Counted from the stretch's first letter, positions 6,416 through 17,519 are shown. The stretch: 64,000 nt of DNA from an uncultured Stakelama sp. (GCA_964496045.1 CAZBYE010000001.1:727-64726), one strand, 5' to 3'. The notes: generated from the sequence alone by a model not told the origin. Numbers and translations are program-made.

Positions 6416-6964
6416 ATGCCGCGGCTGATCTTGTTCAACAAACCCTATGGCGTGCTCTGCCAGTTTACCGACGCGCGCAATCCGACGCCGCGCCCGACCC
6501 TGTCGGACTTCATCGACATGCCGGGCATCTATCCTGCCGGGCGCCTCGATCTCGACAGCGAGGGGTTGCTGCTCCTCACCGATGATGGACGGTTGCAGGC
6601 GCGGATCGCGGACCCGCGGTTCAAGACCCCTAAAACCTATCTCGTGCAGGTCGAGGGCGAGCCGGACGAGATCGCATTGGAAGCGCTGCGCCGCGGGGTC
6701 CGTCTCAAGGATGGCATGACCCTACCCGCCGAGGTTGAGCGTATCGATCCGCCGCAACTCTGGCCGCGTGATCCGCCCGTGCGCTTCCGCAAAACCGTGC
6801 CCGATTGCTGGCTGCGCCTGACGATCCGCGAAGGGCGGAACCGCCAGGTGCGTCGGATGACCGCAACGGTCGGTCATCCGACGCTGCGCCTGATACGCTT
6901 GCGCATAGGCGATTGGACGCTCGACGGCCCGGCGCCCGGCAGCTGGCGGGAAACCACCAGCTGA
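6416..6964 (+). CDS. rluE: rRNA pseudouridine synthase, RluE-like
   Basis: [41 protein letters not shown]. Confidence 0.88.
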
Positions 6965-6983
6965 ACGGGCGCCGTTCCGCACA

Positions 6984-8102
6984 TCAGAACCAGGCGCGCA
7001 CCCCGATCACGAAGTTGGTCGACGATGCGTCGCTCCCGCCAGCGCGGGCATAGTCGGCAGTGCGGCCGAACTTCGTTTCGTGGACGACGCCCACATAGGG
7101 GGCGAACTCACGCGCGATCTCATAACGCAGGCGCAGACCGAATTCAGCGCCGGTCAGCCCCGATCCGATACCAAGCTCCGGCATATCCTGCGCCGACAAG
7201 TCGAACTCGACCTTGGGCTGAAGGATCAGCCGCTGCGTCAACCGCTGGTCATACTCGCCCGCGAAGCTCGCCGTCACTTCACCCTTGTTTGACAGGTAGA
7301 GATAGCCGCTCACCTCGAACCAATATGGCGCAAGGCCTTCAACTCCGATCACCGCATGGGTTCGATCAGGACCTGCACCGACGTCCTGTCGGATACCGGC
7401 CTGGAGGTTGAAATAGGGATCGATCGCGCGGCTGTAGAGCGCCGTCAGTTCGGCGCCTTCCATCGCTTCGCCGAACTCGCCCTCGCCTTCAGCCTTGAAG
7501 ACGAAGCGGTTGATGTCGCCGCCATACCAGACGCTGCCCTCAAACTTATAGCCTTCATGGCCCTTGGCGATCTTGACCTCGGCAAGGTCGAGCATGACCT
7601 GATTAAAGGTGCCGCCCCCATGCTCGCGGCGAAGCATGTCGCGTGCAGGCTGCATGTCGTTCTTGCCCCACACGCGATCGGCATAGTTCGCTGCCACAGG
7701 GCGCGGCGCGGGCGCATCGCCGGCGGGCAGGCTGGTTCCGACCGCTGTATCGTCGACCGCGCTGGTTTTGGGCGTGCAATGCCCCATCTTCGCATGTTCT
7801 GGGGAACAGTCCGGATCGGTCACTGCGGGCGGTGCCTCGGGCTTGGCCTCGGGCATCGTGCAATGGCCCATTTTGGCATGCTCGGGTGTGCAACTGCTCT
7901 GCGCCGGGGCCGCAGGCGCCGGTTCCGGCATCTTGCAATGTCCCATTGCGGCATGTTCCGGGGTACAGCCTGAGGCGGCAGGTGCGGGCTTCGGGGCCGG
8001 TTGCGCGTCCTGCTGCCCGTGCCCGTCATGCGCCTGCGCCAATGCAGGTGCCGCGGCAACGAGCGCGCCGAGCGCTACGCCGATGGAAAGAAGCCGGTTC
8101 AT
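6984..8102 (-). CDS. copB: Copper resistance outer-membrane protein CopB/PcoB
   Basis: Signal peptide from ATG 8102 (overlaps copA stop); WYGGDINR, GVEGLAPYWFE, LRLRYEIAREFAPYVG, terminal WF. Confidence 0.93.
   Translation of the reverse strand: MNRLLSIGVALGALVAAAPALAQAHDGHGQQDAQPAPKPAPAASGCTPEHAAMGHCKMPEPAPAAPAQSSCTPEHAKMGHCTMPEAKPEAPPAVTDPDCSPEHAKMGHCTPKTSAVDDTAVGTSLPAGDAPAPRPVAANYADRVWGKNDMQPARDMLRREHGGGTFNQVMLDLAEVKIAKGHEGYKFEGSVWYGGDINRFVFKAEGEGEFGEAMEGAELTALYSRAIDPYFNLQAGIRQDVGAGPDRTHAVIGVEGLAPYWFEVSGYLYLSNKGEVTASFAGEYDQRLTQRLILQPKVEFDLSAQDMPELGIGSGLTGAEFGLRLRYEIAREFAPYVGVVHETKFGRTADYARAGGSDASSTNFVIGVRAWF
7776..7967 (-). repeat. Three C-[TS]-PEHA-[AK]-MGHC repeats in the CopB N-terminus
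   Basis: Copies at 7935-7967, 7860-7892 and 7776-7808; a fourth copy lies in CopA at 8711-8743. Confidence 0.95.
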
Positions 8103-9880
8103 GCCGCGTCCTCCCGCGGACGCACCGTTACGACCTGCATCATCCCGCCGTGCATGTGATAGAGCATGTGGCAGTGGAACGCCCAGTCGCCCACCGCATC
8201 GGCGGTGAAGTCGAAGGTTGCGGTCCCTCCCGGCTGGACGTTCACCGTATGTTTGCGTGGCGCAAAATCGCCATGCCCGGTGACCAGTTCGAAGAAATGG
8301 CCGTGGAGATGGATCGGGTGGCCCATCATCGTGTCGTTGACGAGCGTCACGCGCACGCGCTCCCCCTCCAGGAATGGGATCGGCGCCTTGACCTCCGACA
8401 GCTTTTCGCCGTCGAACGCCCACATATAGCGTTCCATGTTGCCGGTCAGGTGGATGCGCATCGCCCGTTCGGGCGCGCGAATGTCGGGGTTGCGCTCGAC
8501 CGCGACGAGATCGCGATAGGTCAGCACGCGATGGCCGACATCGGCCAGCCCCTGCCCCGGTTCGCCCATCCGGTCGACCGGCATCGGCGAGATCGACTGG
8601 ACCGTCGGGGTCTTCTTCACCCCCGGCGCGACCGAAAAATCGCGCATCCCGTGATCCATGGCAGGCGCCGGGGCGGCCGCCGCGGCATCGGCGCCCGCTT
8701 CAGGCATCGTGCAATGACCCATCGCCGCGTGCTCGGGCGTGCATCCGCCCGCTCCACCGGCGCCGTGATCCATCCCGCCCATGCCCATGTCCTTCATGGT
8801 GGCGAGCGGACGCTTGCGCAGCGGCGGCACCACCGCAGCCATGCCCGGGCGCGGCGCGAGCGTGGCGACGGCCATGCCGGAGCGGTCGACGCTCTCGGCG
8901 ACCAGCGTATAGGCGCGGTCATCGATCGGCTCGACGATCGCGTCATAGGTTTCGGCGACCGCGATCTGGAACTCGTCCACCGCGACCGGGCGGACCGGAA
9001 GTCCATCGGACTGGACGATGGTGATCTTGAGTCCTGGAATGCGGACGTTGAAGGTCGTCATCGCCGACGCATTGACGAAGCGCAGCCGCACCCGCTCGCC
9101 GGGCCGGAACAGCGCGGTCCAATTGTCCCGCGCTCCATGTCCGTTAATCAGGAAGCTGTAGGTCGAGCCCGTCACGTCGCCGACATCGGTGGGGTCCATC
9201 CGCATCCGGCCCCATTCCATGCGATCCTTGATCGACATCGGCTCGCCATCGGTCGCGGTCAGCTTCTGCTGGTTGAAGTAACCGCCCATCTGCTTGAGCT
9301 TCTGGAAGATCTTGTGCGGATGCATGAAGCTATAGTCGGACAGCACGATCACATGCTCGCGATCCGACACGATCGGGTCGGTGCCCTCGGGATCGATCAC
9401 GATCGGGCCATAATGCCCCATCTGCTCCTGCAGCCCCGAATGGCTGTGGTACCAATAGGTGCCCGACTGGACGATCGGGAATTCATAGGTGAAGGTCGAA
9501 CGCGGCTTGATGCCGGGAAAGCTGACACCGGGCACACCGTCCATGTGGAACGGCAGGATCAGCCCGTGCCAGTGGATCGAGCTGTCCTCGTCCAGCGCAT
9601 TCTCGACGTGCAGCCGGACCTTCTGCCCCTCGCGCAGGCGAACCAACGGCCCCGGCACGGTACCGTTGATCCCGATGGCATGCCCCTGTCTGCCGTCGAT
9701 CGTCACCATCTGGTGCGCGATCTTCAGCCGGATGTCCTCACCCGACACGACCGTAAGGTCGCGAACGAGGCCCGGCGAGTTGGTCTGTGCCCAGGCGGGC
9801 ATCCACGAAGAAAGCGCGAGCGCACCGCCGCCCATCCCTGCGCCGCGCAACAATTGCCGCCGGTCCATTGTCGAATTCAT
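8099..9880 (-). CDS. copA: Periplasmic multicopper oxidase CopA/PcoA (Tat exported)
   Basis: MDRRQLL Tat leader; HWHG, WYHSH, HPIHLHGH, HCHMLYHM copper motifs; start re-called at ATG 9880. Confidence 0.95.
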   Translation of the reverse strand: MNSTMDRRQLLRGAGMGGGALALSSWMPAWAQTNSPGLVRDLTVVSGEDIRLKIAHQMVTIDGRQGHAIGINGTVPGPLVRLREGQKVRLHVENALDEDSSIHWHGLILPFHMDGVPGVSFPGIKPRSTFTYEFPIVQSGTYWYHSHSGLQEQMGHYGPIVIDPEGTDPIVSDREHVIVLSDYSFMHPHKIFQKLKQMGGYFNQQKLTATDGEPMSIKDRMEWGRMRMDPTDVGDVTGSTYSFLINGHGARDNWTALFRPGERVRLRFVNASAMTTFNVRIPGLKITIVQSDGLPVRPVAVDEFQIAVAETYDAIVEPIDDRAYTLVAESVDRSGMAVATLAPRPGMAAVVPPLRKRPLATMKDMGMGGMDHGAGGAGGCTPEHAAMGHCTMPEAGADAAAAAPAPAMDHGMRDFSVAPGVKKTPTVQSISPMPVDRMGEPGQGLADVGHRVLTYRDLVAVERNPDIRAPERAMRIHLTGNMERYMWAFDGEKLSEVKAPIPFLEGERVRVTLVNDTMMGHPIHLHGHFFELVTGHGDFAPRKHTVNVQPGGTATFDFTADAVGDWAFHCHMLYHMHGGMMQVVTVRPREDAA

Positions 9881-9913
9881 GAGATTGTCGAAGCTCCGTT
9901 GATTACCCGGTTC

Positions 9914-9938
9914 TACGCAGGGTCGTCCAAAACCCCTC
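9914..9938 (-). promoter_or_regulatory. Putative ECF (CnrH-type) promoter for copAB
   Basis: GAGGGG-TTTTGGACGACCCTG(15 nt)-CGTA upstream of the copA start. Confidence 0.75.
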
Positions 9939-9989
9939 AAACCGAAACGCCGAAAAGCCGTCAAAAACCGCCGATATCCCGGCTGAAAC

Positions 9990-10541
9990 TCAGCGCTCGG
10001 CGAGATGCCGTCGCGCACGATAGAGCCGCGTCTCCACCGACTTTTCGCTGATGCCCAGCATCTCGGCGACCTGCGCCTGCGGCAGCCCTTCGACCGTTCG
10101 CAGCACCAGCACTTCGCGCAGTTTCGCCGGCATCCCCGCGATCTGCCTGCGCACATCGTCCAGTTCGGCGCGATCGGAAACCTGCTGATCGACCGACACC
10201 TGATCCGCAGCGACGTCCGGCGCGTCTCCCAGCGGCAGGACGCTGCGCAGCACCGCGCGTACCCGCTCCTTGCGCCGCCAGTCGCGCGCTTTGTTGATCG
10301 CGATGCGCGCCAGCCAGGTTCGCATGGGGCGATCACGGTCATAGCGTTTGAGCGCAGCATGCGCCGAAACGAACGCTTCCTGCACCAGATCGAGCGCGTC
10401 GTCGGGGTTGCCGACCAGACGCGCGGTCAAGCCGTAGAGGAACTGCTTGTGGCGGCCGACGATCAGGGCAAAAGCCCGCTGATCGCCCGCGATGGAACGC
10501 GCCGCCAATTCGCCGTCGCTTTCCGCCGCCGGAAGGGTCAC
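9990..10541 (-). CDS. ECF sigma factor, CnrH/NccH-like
   Basis: DALDLVQEAF, WLARIAINKARDWRR, ISEKSVETRLYRAR; last gene of an anti-sigma/sensor/sigma triad. Confidence 0.9.
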   Translation of the reverse strand: MTLPAAESDGELAARSIAGDQRAFALIVGRHKQFLYGLTARLVGNPDDALDLVQEAFVSAHAALKRYDRDRPMRTWLARIAINKARDWRRKERVRAVLRSVLPLGDAPDVAADQVSVDQQVSDRAELDDVRRQIAGMPAKLREVLVLRTVEGLPQAQVAEMLGISEKSVETRLYRARRHLAER

Positions 10542-10972
10542 TGCTGTTCTTCGACCAGCGCCTTGGTCACCGCCTCGTCGAAAATCCGGGCCTGATCCTC
10601 ACGAAGCAGCGCGCGCATCGCAAGCACATGCGCCAGCGTCGCCTTCTGAAGTTCACCCATCGTCACATGCGTTGCATCGATCGCGGCTTCGACCGCGGGA
10701 CCATTGCGATGCTCGGCCTGAATCGCCTCGGCAAGCCGCCGGTTGTGCGCGCGCATCGTCGCCTCCAGCGCGCGCCGGCGCACGGCGAACTCGTCCTCCA
10801 GCGCCTCCAGCTTGCGTTTCTGGTCCGCGTCGAGGTTGAGCCGGTCATGCAGCACCGCATGAATATCGACGCGCGTCTGTTGCTTCACCGGCGCAAGCGC
10901 CCGGCCAGCGAACACGCCAAGAAGTGCTGCCGCAAAGGCGATCAGCGCGACAATCAAATTCCGTCGCATCAT
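10538..10972 (-). CDS. Membrane-anchored periplasmic heavy-metal sensor, CnrX/NccX-like
   Basis: N-terminal TM; HAVLH, LEDEF, LQKATLAHVLAMR match the CnrX His/His/Glu/His/Met ligand pattern. Confidence 0.88.
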   Translation of the reverse strand: MMRRNLIVALIAFAAALLGVFAGRALAPVKQQTRVDIHAVLHDRLNLDADQKRKLEALEDEFAVRRRALEATMRAHNRRLAEAIQAEHRNGPAVEAAIDATHVTMGELQKATLAHVLAMRALLREDQARIFDEAVTKALVEEQQ

Positions 10973-11250
10973 CGCTCACCCGAGCCGAGCAGCAACGACG
11001 AAGGCGCCAGCGGGCCAGGGTCGGCGAACGTCACCGGCGTAGATGCGACAGCCTGCCTCGACGGCACCGTTGCGCCCATCGCCCCGATCAGCAGCGCGCC
11101 GACGGCAAGGCCCGCCGTCATGCGCCGGCCAGCCGCGTCCGCGCGCCGCACGACAATGGTCGCAAGCACGCGATCCTCGATCCCGTCGAGAGCCGGGTGA
11201 TCGGGAAGCTGGCCCAGCGCCCGCAATTTGTCGTCGAGTTCGGCAACCAT
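10969..11250 (-). CDS. Small single-TM anti-sigma factor, CnrY-like (93 aa)
   Basis: Start re-called at ATG 11250; short cytoplasmic helical region, one TM, C-terminal LAPSSLL; size and position match cnrY. Confidence 0.75.
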   Translation of the reverse strand: MVAELDDKLRALGQLPDHPALDGIEDRVLATIVVRRADAAGRRMTAGLAVGALLIGAMGATVPSRQAVASTPVTFADPGPLAPSSLLLGSGER

Positions 11251-11274
11251 CTTATCGTCTCCGTCGGCCACAAT

Positions 11275-11300
11275 TACGCAGCGCCGTGTCATTCCCCTCG
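11275..11300 (-). promoter_or_regulatory. Putative ECF promoter for the cnrYXH-like operon (autoregulatory)
   Basis: CGAGGGG-AATGACACGGCGCTG(15 nt)-CGTA. Confidence 0.75.
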
Positions 11301-11306
11301 AAATTT

Positions 11307-11333
11307 CGGGGGGTTGGCCGATTGGCCGCGTAT
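11307..11333 (+). promoter_or_regulatory. Putative ECF promoter for copCD
   Basis: CGGGGGG-TTGGCCGATTGGCCG(15 nt)-CGTAT, back-to-back with the cnrY-like promoter. Confidence 0.72.
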
Positions 11334-11359
11334 CCAAGGCGAAGCCCAAGGAGTAATAT

Positions 11360-11749
11360 ATGCACATTCTCTCGAAAATCGCATTGTCGCTTGCAGCTGT
11401 CTTCTCGCTCGCCGCCCCGACCGTCGCCGCCGCCCATCCCAAACTGCTTTCGGCAACCCCCGCGGCGAATGCGCCTGCGAAGGCCGTGTCGCGGATTGTA
11501 CTCAAGTTCAGCGAACGGCTGACCCCCAAACTCTCGGGCGCGACGCTGACGATGACCGGGATGCCGGGCATGGCCAACCATCCCGACATGAAAATGACCG
11601 GGGTGAGCGCCGCGGTCGGCAGCGACGGCACCACGATCGTCCTGACCTCGGCGAGGCCGCTTCCTGCCGGTACCTACCGCGTCAACTGGCACGTGGTGGG
11701 TGCGGACACGCACCGGATCACGGGCACGCACAGCTTCTCCGTGAAGTGA
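11360..11749 (+). CDS. copC: Periplasmic copper-binding protein CopC
   Basis: Signal peptide ending AAA-HPKL (N-terminal His), Met-rich MTGMPGMANHPDMKM loop, WHVVGADTHRITG. Confidence 0.95.
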   Translation: MHILSKIALSLAAVFSLAAPTVAAAHPKLLSATPAANAPAKAVSRIVLKFSERLTPKLSGATLTMTGMPGMANHPDMKMTGVSAAVGSDGTTIVLTSARPLPAGTYRVNWHVVGADTHRITGTHSFSVK

Positions 11750-11750
11750 C

Positions 11751-12626
11751 ATGATCGCATTGGCAGCAGGGGAAGGTACGGCGGTCGCGCTGCGCTTTCT
11801 GGTCTACCTTGACCTGCTGCTGGTCGCGGGATTGCTGCTCTGCGCACGGCGGACCGTACCCGACGAAATGCCCGCCCGGTGGATTGCGGGTCTCGCCGCC
11901 ACCGGAGCGGTCTTCGCGATCGCGCAGCTCTTCACGACCGCGCTCGCGATGACCGGGGGTGATGTCTCGGTGCTGGATGCGGAAATGCTACGCTTCATCG
12001 CTGTCGAGACACCCGCAGGTTTGTCGGGCATCGCCCGCTTCGCACTGCTCGCGATGCTGGCAATTGCCGCGATCCGCGCCCCGGCGGCGCGCGCGCTCCA
12101 GCTACCGCTGGCGCTTGCGGCATTGGCGACGCTGGCCTGGACCGGACACGCCGGCGCCAGCGAAGGCAGCACCGGCACGATCCATCGCACATCGGACGTC
12201 CTTCACCTGATCGCCGCTGCAGCATGGCTGGGAACGCTGGTGCTTCTGCTGCGCGCGCTCATCCGCTCGAACATCCCAACGGCGGGTCTGGTTGCCGCGC
12301 TTCACCGGTTCGCCTCGATCGGAACGCTGATCGTCGGAACCTTGACCATCACCGGCATCGTCAACCTCTGGGCCATCACCGGACTTGCGTCGCTGCCGGA
12401 ACTCGCGGCCAGCCCCTATGGCCGCGCGCTCGGTCTGAAGCTGGCGCTCTTCGCGGCGATGTTGGGTTTTGCCGCATTCAATCGCTGGCGCCTTGTGCCG
12501 CGACTGGAATCGGCGCCGCCATCGGCAGCGAAAGCCTTGCGGGCCAGCGTGACGCTTGAAACCGCACTGGCGATCGGCGTCATCGTGGTGGTCGCGCTGT
12601 TAGGAACCCTTGCGCCCGGCGCGTGA
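11751..12626 (+). CDS. copD: Inner-membrane copper protein CopD
   Basis: Multi-TM; WTGHAGA, LHLIAAAAWLG, YGRALGLKL, NRWRLVP; directly follows copC. Confidence 0.92.
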   Translation: MIALAAGEGTAVALRFLVYLDLLLVAGLLLCARRTVPDEMPARWIAGLAATGAVFAIAQLFTTALAMTGGDVSVLDAEMLRFIAVETPAGLSGIARFALLAMLAIAAIRAPAARALQLPLALAALATLAWTGHAGASEGSTGTIHRTSDVLHLIAAAAWLGTLVLLLRALIRSNIPTAGLVAALHRFASIGTLIVGTLTITGIVNLWAITGLASLPELAASPYGRALGLKLALFAAMLGFAAFNRWRLVPRLESAPPSAAKALRASVTLETALAIGVIVVVALLGTLAPGA

Positions 12627-12658
12627 CAGGCTGAAAGTCTCAGCGCTAAGAAGCGGTG

Positions 12659-13561
12659 ATGACACACCATTCTCGCCGCATCGCCTATCTCGCCTGCAAC
12701 GGGACGGTGACCACCTCTCCGGCACGTCGCCACGATGCATTCGAACATGATCATTCGCTCCGCATCTTCGGTCCGGCCTTCGCCGATCGGGGCTATCGCC
12801 TCGAAGAAATTGCCTGGGACGCGGATGTCGACTGGGAACAGTTCGACGCGGCGATCATCGGCACGACCTGGGACTATGCAACGCAGGCGGACCGTTTCCT
12901 GGCGACACTGAAGGCAATCGCCGCGCGTATCCCGCTCGCCAACCCGCCCGAGCTGATCGAATGGAACCTCTCCAAACGCTATCTCCGCGATCTCGACGCG
13001 AAGGGTGTTCCCTCCATTCCGACCCTGTGGGTCGATCGTCTCGCCGACCTTGCGCCGGACGAAATCAATGCCGGCATCGGGACCGGTCAGATGGTGATCA
13101 AGCCCGTGGTCGGCGCAGGTGGGGTAGACCAGTTCAAGGGAGCGACGGAAACCATGCCGGCGCCCGATCATCCCCTCTGGCATCAAGGCGTGATGATCCA
13201 GCCCTTCATGGCCAGCATCGGCGAAGAAGGCGAACTCAGCCTGCTCTTCTTCGACGGGATCTTCAGCCATGCCGTGCGCAAGACCCCGGCGCGCGCCGAC
13301 TATCGCGTTCAGTCGGTCTTTGACGGCAAGGAGCACGCATTCACCCCGAGCGCGAGCGATCTGGCGAGCGCGCAAGCCGTGATCGACGCGCTCCCCGCTC
13401 CGGCACTCTACGCGCGGGTCGATCTGATACGGCGGCCTGATGGCGTACTTGCGGTCATGGAGTGCGAACTCATCGAACCCTATCTCTATCCGCAGTTCGA
13501 CGGCAGCGAGGGCCGGAACCTTGCGATCGCGGTCGAACGCTGGCTCGAACGCGCCGGCTGA
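12659..13561 (+). CDS. ATP-grasp ligase (RimK/glutathione synthetase-like)
   Basis: TTWDY, WNLSKRYL, VIKPVVGAG, IQPFM, YARVDL, VMECELIEPYLY. Confidence 0.82.
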   Translation: MTHHSRRIAYLACNGTVTTSPARRHDAFEHDHSLRIFGPAFADRGYRLEEIAWDADVDWEQFDAAIIGTTWDYATQADRFLATLKAIAARIPLANPPELIEWNLSKRYLRDLDAKGVPSIPTLWVDRLADLAPDEINAGIGTGQMVIKPVVGAGGVDQFKGATETMPAPDHPLWHQGVMIQPFMASIGEEGELSLLFFDGIFSHAVRKTPARADYRVQSVFDGKEHAFTPSASDLASAQAVIDALPAPALYARVDLIRRPDGVLAVMECELIEPYLYPQFDGSEGRNLAIAVERWLERAG

Positions 13562-13565
13562 TCGC

Positions 13566-14249
13566 TCAATCCCGGGCGATATTGCGTACCAGCACCCCGC
13601 GGAACTGCAACGCCTGGAAGAACGTCTGGGGGGTGGCAAAACCCGCACGAGCGAGAATCTCGGCGAACCGCGCTGACCCGACCGGATGGAACAGCCGCTC
13701 CATGCGTTGGATCATCGACGACGCACCCTCGGCGTCGAGTCCGGCAAGCTGCGCCCACCGCGACAGCAATACCGGCATCGTCGCTTCATTCGCGGGCAGG
13801 AGCAGTTCAGCGGTCACCAGCGGTGCGCCGGCCTTGAGCCGCTGCGCAATCGCCGCGAAGAAATGCGCCTTCTCCCCGGTGTCAGGCAGGAAATGAGAGA
13901 CCAGCAGGCTGACTGCGCCGTCGAAACGATGATCGTCCGGCGGAAGATCGTCGATCGTACCGACAAGCCAGCTGACGCGACCTGCAGCATCGGAATCGAG
14001 CCGGCGCCTCGCCTGATCGAGCATCGCCTCGGACGGATCAACCGCGGCAAAGCGCCAGCGCGGATTGAGGATGGCGAGACGCTCAAGTTCCGCTCCCGTC
14101 CCCGCGCCGACGACAAGCAGTTTTGCTTCCGGCGGCAGCAACTCGGTCAGAATCGCCGCTGACAGCTCCTGCAGCGCGACATAGCCGGGCACTCGCCTGA
14201 CGATGTCGCCGTCATAGCTGCCGGCTTCGCGCCCCTTGAACTTATCCAC
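13566..14249 (-). CDS. Class I SAM-dependent methyltransferase
   Basis: VPGY, LVVGAGTGAEL, VDPSEAML, FDGAVSLLVSHF; downstream of copZ. Confidence 0.85.
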   Translation of the reverse strand: MDKFKGREAGSYDGDIVRRVPGYVALQELSAAILTELLPPEAKLLVVGAGTGAELERLAILNPRWRFAAVDPSEAMLDQARRRLDSDAAGRVSWLVGTIDDLPPDDHRFDGAVSLLVSHFLPDTGEKAHFFAAIAQRLKAGAPLVTAELLLPANEATMPVLLSRWAQLAGLDAEGASSMIQRMERLFHPVGSARFAEILARAGFATPQTFFQALQFRGVLVRNIARD

Positions 14250-14287
14250 TCGATACCCCTGTCCCGATGATGCCGGTGCGCCTCCTG

Positions 14288-14509
14288 TCAGGCCGCCGCT
14301 TCAACCGGCGAATGATCGATCTTGTAACCCGCCTGTTCGATTGCGGCCTTGATGCGATCGATGTCGGCATTGGAATCGATCGCGACCGTCTTGGCCCTCA
14401 GATCGGCCTCGACCCCAGCCTGCGGATCGACACTATGCACCGCGGCGGTAATGGCCCTCACACAGGGTGAGCAATTCATGCCGTGAACGGTCAGTTCAAT
14501 CATTCTCAT
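14288..14509 (-). CDS. copZ: Copper chaperone (HMA domain), CopZ-like
   Basis: 73 aa; GMNCSPC, AIEQAGY. Confidence 0.88.
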   Translation of the reverse strand: MRMIELTVHGMNCSPCVRAITAAVHSVDPQAGVEADLRAKTVAIDSNADIDRIKAAIEQAGYKIDHSPVEAAA

Positions 14510-14542
14510 TCCTCCATCCCGATATCGGGAACGCGGAATGTC

Positions 14543-14567
14543 GGGTTTTACACCGTGATAAGGTCAA
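14543..14567 (-). promoter_or_regulatory. CueR-type promoter/operator for copZ
   Basis: Minus strand TTGACCTTatCACgGTGtaAAACC: -35 hexamer overlapping an imperfect dyad. Confidence 0.6.
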
Positions 14568-14592
14568 GCCCGTCGGGCGAAAATTCGCAGCC

Positions 14593-14623
14593 TTGACCCT
14601 AACATGATGTCAGGGTCCATATG
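14593..14623 (+). promoter_or_regulatory. CueR-type promoter/operator for the Cu-ATPase
   Basis: TTGACC overlapping dyad ACCCTaACATgATGTcAGGGT (14596-14616), typical MerR-family layout. Confidence 0.8.
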
Positions 14624-14655
14624 GATCGTCGACTCACATTCCGAGGAGATGAATC

Positions 14656-17109
14656 ATGGACGCTCAACTGCTGCGTCGCCCCGAACCCGACGACGACCGG
14701 ACGCTGGATATGCCCATCGCGGGCATGACCTGCGCGTCCTGCGTGGGGCGTATCGAGCGCGCGATCGGGCAAGTGCCGGGCGTCGTCGATGTCACGGTCA
14801 ATCTCGCAACCGAACGCGCGAAGATCCGGTTCGAGGACGGCCGGGAAGATGCGGCTGCCGTGGCGGAAGCCGTGCGCGCGGCGGGCTATACGCCGCTGTC
14901 CGAAGCCATCGAGCTGTCGATCGAAGGCATGACCTGCGCTTCCTGCGTCGGCCGGGTCGAAAAGGCGTTGCGCGCCGTCCCCGGCGTGCTTGGCGCCGAG
15001 GTCAACCTCGCGACCGAAACCGCGCGCGTCGAGGCGCCCGCGGGCATCAGCCCGGCCATGCTGATCGCGGCCGTTTCCGGCGCTGGCTACACGGCAAGCC
15101 TCCGTGCCGCGCAGGAGCCCGATCAGCTCGCGGCGGACGAAGCTCGTTTCGCGCAGGCGAGCTCGCGTGAGCTGTACCACGTCCTCATCGCCACGGTGCT
15201 GTCACTGCCGCTCGTCGTGCCGATGCTGCTGGCGCCGTTCGGCGTGACCCTGGCGGTACCCGGATGGCTCCAGATGCTGCTCGCTACCCCGGTCCAGTTC
15301 TGGCTGGGCGCGCGCTTCTATCGTGCCGGCTGGAAGGCGGTGAAGGCGCGGTCGGGCAATATGGACCTGCTCGTCGCGATCGGCACCAGCGCCGCCTATG
15401 GCCTCAGCATTTATCAGTTGCTGGTGCCGCCGGCGCATCATGGCGGCGAAGCGGTACATTATTATTTCGAGGCCGGGGCTGTCGTCATCACGCTGGTGCT
15501 GCTCGGCAAATGGCTCGAAGGCCGCGCCAAGCGGCAGACGGGCGCGGCGATCCGTGCGCTGATGGCGCTCAGGCCGGATACCGCGCGGGTCGTCGCGGCG
15601 GGCGGTGAGGAGGTCGAGGTTCCGGTCGCGCAGGTCCGCGTCGGCGACATCGTCCGGATCCGCCCCGGCGAGCGCATCCCGGTCGATGGCCGACTGGTCC
15701 GGGGCGAGACCAGCGTCGATGAATCGATGCTCACCGGCGAAAGCCTGCCCGTCGCCAAGGCCGAAGGCGACCGCGCGACCGGCGGCGCGATCAATGGCGA
15801 GGGCCTGATCGACGTCGAGACGCTCGCCGTCGGCGCTGAGACCACCCTCGCGCGCATCGTCCGCCTCGTCGAAAGCGCGCAGGGGGCCAAGGCGCCGATC
15901 CAGCGGCTGGTCGACAAGGTGAGCGCGGTGTTCGTGCCGATCGTGCTCGCGATCGCCGCGCTGACCTTTGCCGGCTGGCTCGCCGCGGGCGCGAGTGTCG
16001 AGGTCGCGATCCTCAATGCCGTCGCGGTTCTGGTCATCGCCTGCCCCTGTGCGCTCGGCCTCGCCACCCCGACCGCGATCATGGCCGGCACCGGCGTTGC
16101 CGCACGCGCGGGCGTTTTGATCAAGGATGCCGAAGCCCTCGAGATCGCCCACCGGATTGACACAGTTGCCTTCGATAAGACCGGTACACTGACCGAAGGC
16201 AAACCATCCCTCGTCGCCGCCCTCCCCCTCTCCGGCTCTGGCGAACCTGAACTGATCGAACTCGCCGCCAGCCTGCAGCAGGGCAGCGAGCATCCCCTGG
16301 CGCGCGCCGTGATGGCGACTGCGGCCGAACAGGACCTGCGTCCGCGCGAAACGCGTTTCATCCGCGCCTTGCCCGGGCGTGGCATCGCCGGCCATGTGGA
16401 CGGCCAGCGCCTCATTCTCGGCAATGCGCGCCTTCTGGGCGAGGAAGGCATCGACCTCGCTCCATTCGCTGCTCAGGCGCAGAGGTTCGAGCAGGATGGC
16501 AGGTCGGTTTCCTGGCTGGCGCGGACAGCGCCCTCCCCAGCGGTGCTTGGGCTGCTCGCCTTCGGCGACGCGGCCAAAGCCTCGGCCAAAGACGCCATCG
16601 CGACGCTGCACGCCCAAGGCATCCGCAGCGTGATGATCACCGGCGACAATCGCGGCAGCGCGATGGCAGCCGCCGGACAGCTGGGCATCGACGAGGTGAT
16701 CGCCAACGTCCTGCCTGAAGGCAAAGCCGACGCCGTCGCAAAGCTCAAGGGTAATAAGGCGACCGTCGCGATGGTCGGCGACGGGGTCAACGACGCGCCG
16801 GCGCTCGCCGCTGCCGATGTCGGCATCGCCATGTCGACCGGAACCGATGTCGCGATGCATGCTGCGGGCATCACCCTGATGCGCGGCGATCCCCGCCTCG
16901 TCGCCGATGCCATCGACATTTCGCGGCGGACCTATTCCAAGATTCGTCAGGGACTGTTCTGGGCGTTCGTCTACAACATTGTCGGCATCCCGCTTGCCGC
17001 GCTCGGCCTGCTGAGCCCGGTGGTCGCGGGCGGCGCGATGGCGCTGTCGAGCGTCAGCGTCGTGGCCAATGCGCTGACGCTCCGGCGCTGGCGCCCGCGC
17101 GCCTCTTGA
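14656..17109 (+). CDS. Cu(I)-translocating P1B-1 ATPase
   Basis: Two GMTCASC HMA domains, TGES, CPC, DKTGT, HP, GDGVND, YN and MALSS motifs. Confidence 0.96.
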
Positions 17110-17123
17110 GCAAGGAACATCCC

Positions 17124-17519
17124 ATGAAAATCGGAGAGGCATCGAAACGGTCCGGCGTGAGCCAGCGGATGATCCGCCATTACGAAGGGCTGGAGCTGAT
17201 CCCCAAGGCTGCACGGCGCGAGTCGGGCTATCGCGACTATGACGAGAGCGATGTCCACACGCTGCGCTTCATCCGCCGCGCCCGCGACCTCGGCTTTCCG
17301 ATCGAGGAGATCCGTCAGCTCGTCGCACTATGGCACGACCGCAGCCGCTCGAGCGCCGACGTCAAGGCACTGGCGCTCGCTCGCGCCGCTGAACTCGACC
17401 GCAAGGCGCGCGAACTCGATGAGATGCGGCACGCCCTCACGCATCTCGCCGCAACCTGCCAGGGCGACGACCGGCCGGACTGCCCGATCATCAAGCGACT
17501 CGAACGGCCCGACGCGTAG
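17124..17519 (+). CDS. cueR: Cu(I)-responsive MerR-family regulator CueR
   Basis: MKIGEAS...MIRHYE HTH; C-terminal CQGDDRPDCP loop. Confidence 0.93.
   Translation: MKIGEASKRSGVSQRMIRHYEGLELIPKAARRESGYRDYDESDVHTLRFIRRARDLGFPIEEIRQLVALWHDRSRSSADVKALALARAAELDRKARELDEMRHALTHLAATCQGDDRPDCPIIKRLERPDA

Follow-up and report, generated by a model that had tools for sequence, protein, structure and literature searches.

Textbooks describe copper resistance operons of the copABCD type as controlled by two-component systems. CopRS, PcoRS and CusRS, which control copABCD/pcoABCD and cusCFBA, couple periplasmic metal sensing to periplasmic copper detoxification by phosphorylation and have a cytoplasmic circuit of CueR and an ATPase as their counterpart in the same genome. 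Another design is represented by CnrYXH of Cupriavidus metallidurans CH34 (plasmid pMOL28) and NccYXH (31A), which belong to group ECF291, formerly ECF20, of the extracytoplasmic function (ECF) sigma factors. Here three coupled genes encode, in this order, a small transmembrane protein, a sensor and a sigma factor, and the output is a pump of the resistance-nodulation-division (RND) type (cnrCBA/nccCBA) together with cnrT. CnrH responds to Ni/Co, the only copper-responsive ECF sigma factors named being CarQ and CorE (PMC6851896, PMC10141476), and the ECF reclassification associates ECF291 with an operon for a metal efflux pump (PMC7826278). In this study we analyzed a 64,000-nt stretch of DNA from an uncultured Stakelama sp. 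(GCA_964496045.1 CAZBYE010000001.1:727-64726; hereafter the window, whose coordinates are used throughout), in which three genes resembling CnrYXH lie between copAB and copCD. From its sequence, this triad is probably a CnrYXH-type trans-envelope module that has periplasmic copper handling as its output and not a Ni/Co RND pump.

The locus shares with CnrYXH and NccYXH the three coupled genes, the sensor fold, five metal ligands, predicted autoregulation with a second promoter for the output genes, and promoter boxes of the GAGGG and CGTA(TA) type. It differs from them in its output, copAB and copCD, in an Asp/Glu99-His102-Met105 signature of the sensor, in a shorter promoter spacer, in a small protein that is not detectably similar to CnrY in sequence, and in its hosts, which are Alphaproteobacteria (Sphingomonadales, Brevundimonas). 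With CopRS, PcoRS and CusRS it has in common the periplasmic side of both sensing and detoxification and the presence of a CueR-ATPase circuit in the same genome, whereas release of a sigma factor is proposed here in place of phosphorylation and no kinase or regulator is encoded at the locus. CorE (ECF44/ECF238) and CarQ/CarR of Myxococcus xanthus offer a further parallel, in that an ECF sigma factor acts on copper genes including a multicopper oxidase (PMC6851896). However, CorE binds copper itself, has a Cys-rich C-terminal extension with a CxC motif and works with no anti-sigma factor, while the sigma factor of the present locus contains no cysteine, ends at region 4.2 with no C-terminal extension and is accompanied by a membrane sensor and a small transmembrane protein. 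CarQ/CarR, unlike the triad, controls carotenoid genes.

The full-text literature (including PMC6851896, PMC10141476, PMC7826278, PMC13492112 and PMC11672702) yielded no account of cop genes under the control of a CnrYXH-type system, subscription journals being outside this coverage. This agrees with the original prediction, which knew of no experimental description. None of the three triad proteins had a specific model in NCBIfam. The cop-linked triad is a widely conserved and apparently uncharacterised form of the CnrYXH design that serves a copper regulon.

The gene triad

The gene map, built from the listing of open reading frames and from Pfam scans, confirmed that overlapping genes for the small protein, the sensor and the sigma factor lie upstream of copAB and divergent from copCD, as had been proposed. 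The order on the minus strand is small protein, sensor, sigma factor, copA and copB, with copC-copD on the plus strand. Stop and start codons overlap by 4 nt at the small protein/sensor, sensor/sigma and copA/copB junctions, and the copB ATG shares the sequence ATGA with the copA stop. The copper genes were identified as copABCD by Pfam matches to Cu-oxidase, CopB, CopC and CopD well above the cut-offs.

The best solved relative of the sigma factor was CnrH (4cxf_A; E 2e-30), followed by SigW (1e-20). Compared with CnrH of pMOL28 it showed 43% identity over 96% of the length; kinship to ECF291 was judged by this similarity to CnrH. For the sensor, the top matches in the PDB were NccX and CnrX (E ~6e-19), with about 40% identity to the CnrX/NccX counterpart. 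Its AlphaFold2 model had a predicted local distance difference test score (pLDDT) of 85, and the 15 top Foldseek hits of this model were all CnrX/NccX chains, the CnrXs chains giving TM-scores of 0.79-0.87. Nearest relatives, gene order, protein sizes and overlaps therefore all agree with the CnrYXH-like nature claimed for the triad.

The small protein consists of an N-terminal cytoplasmic segment of ~40 aa, a transmembrane helix and a C-terminal LAPSxLL tail. It corresponds to CnrY in gene position, length (93 vs 95 aa), single-pass topology with the N-terminus inside and translational coupling, and the periplasmic tails are alike (LAPSxLL vs ASPFGLL in CnrY). A small transmembrane protein was also encoded before the sensor in all of 72 close loci and in the majority of the distant ones. 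A complex of the sigma factor with residues 1-45 of the small protein was predicted with an interface score (ipSAE) of 0.60, compared with 0.01 for the best control, which was graded as weak support; the runs agreed in at least 83% of the contacts and the partner had a pLDDT of at least 68. In the calibration of ipSAE, 58 of 80 solved complexes and 2 of 110 mismatched pairs attained the mark, and 7 of those solved complexes as well as both mismatches scored 0.60 or less.

Several results speak against an anti-sigma role. No match to the small protein was found in Pfam, NCBIfam, PDB profiles or the protein atlas, and its similarity to CnrY was not significant (BLASTP E 3.8; narrow-profile hhalign probability 0.5%). 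A broad profile of 85 sequences aligned collinearly with CnrY/NccY over 84 columns (P 3e-4), but with a probability of just 17-22%. The score of the predicted complex falls in the weak range, and the solved CnrH-CnrY complex (4cxf) could have biased the model by likeness. Given the lack of significant CnrY similarity and of a family assignment, the 93-aa protein might instead assist or stabilise the sensor as one of its subunits, with the sigma factor controlled in another way. The CnrY-like position, size, topology and coupling, the occurrence of a small transmembrane protein before the sensor in nearly all loci, the collinear broad-profile alignment and the difference between the predicted complex and its controls argue against this alternative, which we regard as quite improbable. 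By analogy with CnrY and from the modelled complex, the 93-aa protein is likely an anti-sigma factor. The original prediction had named it as such; this was not established, as significant similarity to CnrY was not obtained and the complex prediction was weak.

Promoter boxes and the proposed copper regulon

Three box pairs were found, before the small-protein gene, copA and copC (PY, PcopA and PcopC in Table 1), so that autoregulation and a second promoter of the CnrH type for the output genes are predicted at the sequence level. PY and PcopC stand back-to-back, and their -35 boxes form an inverted repeat. The CnrH promoters of pMOL28, cnrYp and cnrCp, read (G/A)AGGG-N17-CGTATA as against GAGGG-N16-CGTA here, the spacer of the present promoters being 1 nt shorter; the CCGTATA -10 element of cnrYp has been defined by primer extension and run-off transcription (PMC13492112). 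When both strands of the 3.39-Mb genome were searched with the loose pattern G(A/G)GGG-N15-GCGTA, 15 matches were obtained, compared with 9-14 for controls with wrong spacers. Since the genome-wide background was only at the control level, three correctly oriented boxes within 1.4 kb are far beyond chance. The 12 other matches in this 74%-complete genome were rejected as regulon members, as they equalled the wrong-spacer background and were not convincingly placed before genes.

Conservation of the boxes was examined in the loci of sensor relatives. One genome per species was scanned, which gave 555 relatives, and the 80 best loci were nearly all from Sphingomonadaceae. Counted over distinct regions of related loci, the box pair was present before copA in 48 of 84 (0.55 in shuffles), before the small-protein gene in 68 of 96 and before copC in 46 of 54, the shuffles giving 0.05-0.55. 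The boxes were conserved while the spacers varied. Flanking bases that the search did not impose were conserved as well, with T/C before GAGGG in 98% and C/T before GCGTA in 93%. These results bear out the earlier claim that all three transcription units carry the same ECF-like promoter.

The ECF291 (CnrH) consensus quoted from the ECF Hub in Table 4 of PMC13492112 (-35 xATACGC, -10 xxCCCTCA) reads exactly as the reverse complement of the TGAGGG...GCGTAT pair seen here. Motif discovery may have picked the wrong strand owing to the palindromic back-to-back promoters of the small-protein and copC genes, and the GCGTAT form of the consensus suggests that the training set was dominated by cop-linked alphaproteobacterial members.

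Linkage of the triad to copper genes was widespread. Among the 80 best loci, those with enough flanking sequence had copA downstream in 69 of 73, copB in 68 of 73 and a divergent copC-copD pair upstream in 64 of 72. In 20 more distant loci of the order, with sensor identities of 35-55%, sensor, sigma factor, copA and copB followed one another in 18, and divergent copCD was rare. Outside Sphingomonadales (14 loci, many of them from Brevundimonas), copAB was located downstream in 10 and nearby in 2. Over 115 sensor loci from Sphingomonadales, Brevundimonas and other Alphaproteobacteria, copA followed downstream on the same strand in 101, down to a sensor identity of about 35-40%. RND genes were found after the sigma gene in five loci, namely the true cnr/ncc loci L102 and L161 plus L037, L110 and L158. 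The sensor occurred in 131 of 399 high-quality Sphingomonadales species genomes, about one third, and the module was located on many plasmids of Sphingobium, Sphingomonas and Novosphingobium, some of them conjugative, and on chromosomes too. The neighbourhood analysis suggested along with the original prediction revealed conserved copAB linkage in ~100 independent loci.

In some Sphingomonas loci (L002, L004, L009-L012 and L019), ~1.4 kb are inserted between the sigma gene and copA, and the box pair still precedes copA. On a plasmid of Sphingomonas sp. NIC1 (L103), the module is part of a larger copper island with genes for a P-type ATPase, a four-helix-bundle copper-binding protein, cytochrome c, DUF4396, DUF305, DUF411, PepSY and TolC-family proteins. 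Some cop/ECF loci of the sphingomonad type (L003, L004, L011 and L078) came from assemblies that bear the names Mycobacterium sp., Prosthecochloris vibrioformis and Arthrobacter sp., L078 being identical to Sphingomonas loci. These are probably due to bin contamination or mislabelling rather than to transfer.

Other metal regulators in the genome were considered as well. No CopRS/CusRS-family pair and no RND pump were found within the 64-kb window, in agreement with the original prediction; in the genome as a whole this did not hold. On contig C13, an outer-membrane efflux gene has next to it the genes of an OmpR-type regulator and of a kinase of the CusS/CopS/CzcS family that scored above the TIGR01386 cut-off, and contig C33 encodes a CnrA-like RND pump (53% identity). 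CueR and the adjoining P1B ATPase form a cytoplasmic copper circuit of their own, adjacent to the periplasmic one. Two points count against exclusive control of the cop genes by the sigma factor: the CusS/CopS-family pair or CueR could also act on them, and the exact box pair was not found before copA in 36 of the 84 distinct regions, where box variants or read-through from the sigma operon may apply. If the triad and the cop genes were merely neighbours, copAB and copCD would be controlled by the CusRS/CopRS-type pair of C13 or by CueR, or would be constitutive, and the boxes would be non-functional; the presence of these regulators in the genome and the ~12 chance box matches in the background fit such a view. 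Against it stand three boxes in the right orientation before three start codons, conserved despite variable spacers and resembling mapped CnrH promoters. In addition, a kinase/regulator pair within flanks of ~8 kb was encountered in only 1 of the 115 loci, and no match to a sigma-70-like promoter was detected in window 6800-14700. A mere neighbourhood is accordingly very improbable. Membership of copAB and copCD in the sigma regulon is well supported by the predicted promoters and their conservation, and we infer that their expression depends on the sigma factor.

The original prediction also counted an ATP-grasp gene as a possible regulon member, which was not established. This ATP-grasp-like gene starts 29 nt after copD and may be co-transcribed with copCD. 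The genome-wide pattern search found no box pair of its own before it, and among the 80 close loci a homologue was present only in the closest relative, a Stakelama metagenome-assembled genome (L001). Judged from this distribution, the gene is a lineage-specific passenger outside the conserved module. A convergent S-adenosylmethionine methyltransferase gene follows it (window 12656-14249).

The sensor and its metal

Alignment with CnrX of pMOL28 placed H38, H42, E59, H115 and M119 of the sensor at the CnrX metal ligands H42, H46, E63, H119 and M123, and these five ligands were invariant in an alignment of 121 relatives. As the sensor retains the Ni/Co ligand set of CnrX exactly, a Ni/Co or broader metal response is possible, which tells against copper as the signal. 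In contrast, all alphaproteobacterial sensors have Asp/Glu99, His102 and Met105, where CnrX and NccX have Gln, Glu and Ala. Close relatives of the sensor also share Glu87-His88, compared with Asn-Pro in CnrX/NccX. Residues 99, 102 and 105 lie about 13-16 residues from the canonical site along helix 3; this estimate from helix registry points to a site of its own more than to further ligands of the canonical one. The acidic-His-Met signature follows the clade more than the output, and phylogeny and function are confounded for it because the few RND-linked alphaproteobacterial members mostly carry it as well. The CnrX site itself can bind Cu(II) (title of PDB 3epv).

With the same wiring, the sensor might answer to Ni/Co, to several divalent metals or to metal-induced envelope stress, copper then not being the specific signal. 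The strict conservation of all five Ni/Co ligands and the identical fold are in line with this, and some annotation pipelines already call these proteins "nickel and cobalt resistance protein CnrR". On the other hand, the output genes are copper-specific (multicopper oxidase, CopB, CopC and CopD) in ~100 loci, the clade-wide signature at 99/102/105 departs from the Gln-Glu-Ala of CnrX/NccX, the CnrX site accepts Cu(II), and no Ni/Co export genes are linked to the triad. We therefore consider this alternative unlikely. Copper is probably the signal of the sensor, as the original prediction had proposed, judged from the gene association and the clade-specific His/Met signature.

In databases, cop-linked sensors are also listed as "periplasmic heavy metal sensor" and "Spy/CpxP family protein refolding chaperone". 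The name "nickel and cobalt resistance protein CnrR" is probably misleading for the cop-linked clade.

In the sensor tree, a long, fully supported branch split CnrX/NccX from 97 alphaproteobacterial rows, and two RND-linked rows were nearest to CnrX/NccX. As the tree was unrooted, with no outgroup and with long-branch warnings, no direction of rewiring is claimed. The original prediction had spoken of a rewired cascade; this direction was not established, the cop-linked form being far commoner in the sampled genomes.

Only tentatively, and at rather less than even chances, a broader picture can be drawn in which the CnrX fold has two natural specificities, that for copper being common. Either a second site, Asp/Glu99-His102-Met105 (with Glu87-His88 in many members), or a remodelled canonical site would make it a copper sensor. 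In Sphingomonadales and Brevundimonas, conjugative plasmids included, copABCD would in that case be governed chiefly by CnrYXH-type sigma release and not by CopRS.

Gene map, proposed mechanism and meaning

The source genome is a Sphingomonas-like metagenome-assembled genome of 380 contigs and 74% completeness, in which the sensor, copA, copB, copC and copD are each present in a single copy. The GC content of the region is ~65%, and the named sensor homologues nearest to that of the window are from Sphingomonas koreensis, with a sensor identity of 89%. The public sequencing runs that contain this stretch were DNA metagenomes from rock and soil, with no RNA run among them. The TAT_signal match of CopA reached 16.6 bits, under the 22.7-bit cut-off, and its twin-arginine start was taken from the sequence; the mature N-terminus of CopC probably starts with His. 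The Pro/Ala-rich N-terminal region of CopB (window 7600-8000) holds three copies of a C(T/S)PEHA(A/K)MGHC motif, and the Met-rich insert of CopA (window ~8650-8700) holds one.

Table 1. Features of the cop/ECF locus and its surroundings in the window
Feature	Position	Strand	Description
copB	6984-8102	-	outer-membrane copper resistance protein B; PF05275, E 1.6e-85
copA	8099-9880	-	593 aa, MNSTMDRRQLL start; periplasmic multicopper oxidase; Cu-oxidase_3, Cu-oxidase and Cu-oxidase_2 domains
PcopA	9914-9938	-	GAGGG-N15-GCGTA, 33 nt before copA ATG
Terminator-like hairpin and T-run	9970-9983	-	between sigma stop codon and PcopA; weak consensus match
ECF sigma factor gene, CnrH-like	9990-10541	-	183 aa; Sigma70_r2 and r4_2 domains
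Periplasmic metal sensor gene, CnrX-like, membrane-anchored	10538-10972	-	144 aa; PF13801 (Metal_resist), E 5e-17
Gene for single-pass membrane protein in CnrY position, putative anti-sigma factor	10969-11250	-	93 aa
PY	11275-11299	-	GAGGG-N15-GCGTA, 24 nt before small-protein ATG
PcopC	11308-11332	+	GGGGG-N15-GCGTA, 27 nt before copC ATG
copC	11360-11749	+	periplasmic copper-binding protein; PF04234, E 1e-17
copD	11751-12626	+	inner-membrane copper protein; PF05425, E 2.9e-25
ATP-grasp-like gene	12656-13561	+	weak GSH-S_ATP match; DcsG-like below cut-off
P1B ATPase gene, Cu-type	14656-17109		two HMA domains; in the window, beyond the cop region
CueR gene	17106-17519		in the window; overlaps the ATPase gene directly before it; above TIGR02044 cut-off

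In the mechanism that we propose, the 93-aa membrane protein would hold the sigma factor at the inner membrane at rest through its N-terminal cytoplasmic segment of ~40 residues. Binding of periplasmic metal, most likely copper, by the CnrX-fold sensor would alter its contact with the small protein, and the released sigma factor would then transcribe three units from (T/C)GAGGG-N15-GCGTA promoters. Its targets would be its own operon, resulting in positive feedback, copA-copB, and copC-copD with the trailing ATP-grasp gene. Cytoplasmic copper would be dealt with separately by CueR and the P1B ATPase, encoded 1 kb further on.

A signalling design known for Ni/Co thus appears to run a copper regulon in about a third of the sampled Sphingomonadales species, and in Brevundimonas, often on plasmids. 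If this is true, CnrX-type sensors with identical primary ligands and different outputs would form a natural pair for the study of metal selectivity, and the triad with its promoters would provide a compact, probably orthogonal copper-inducible sigma/promoter set. The name "nickel and cobalt resistance protein CnrR" would have to be corrected where it is given to these genes, and the finding would also be relevant to the ECF291 promoter model applied in recent work on C. metallidurans.

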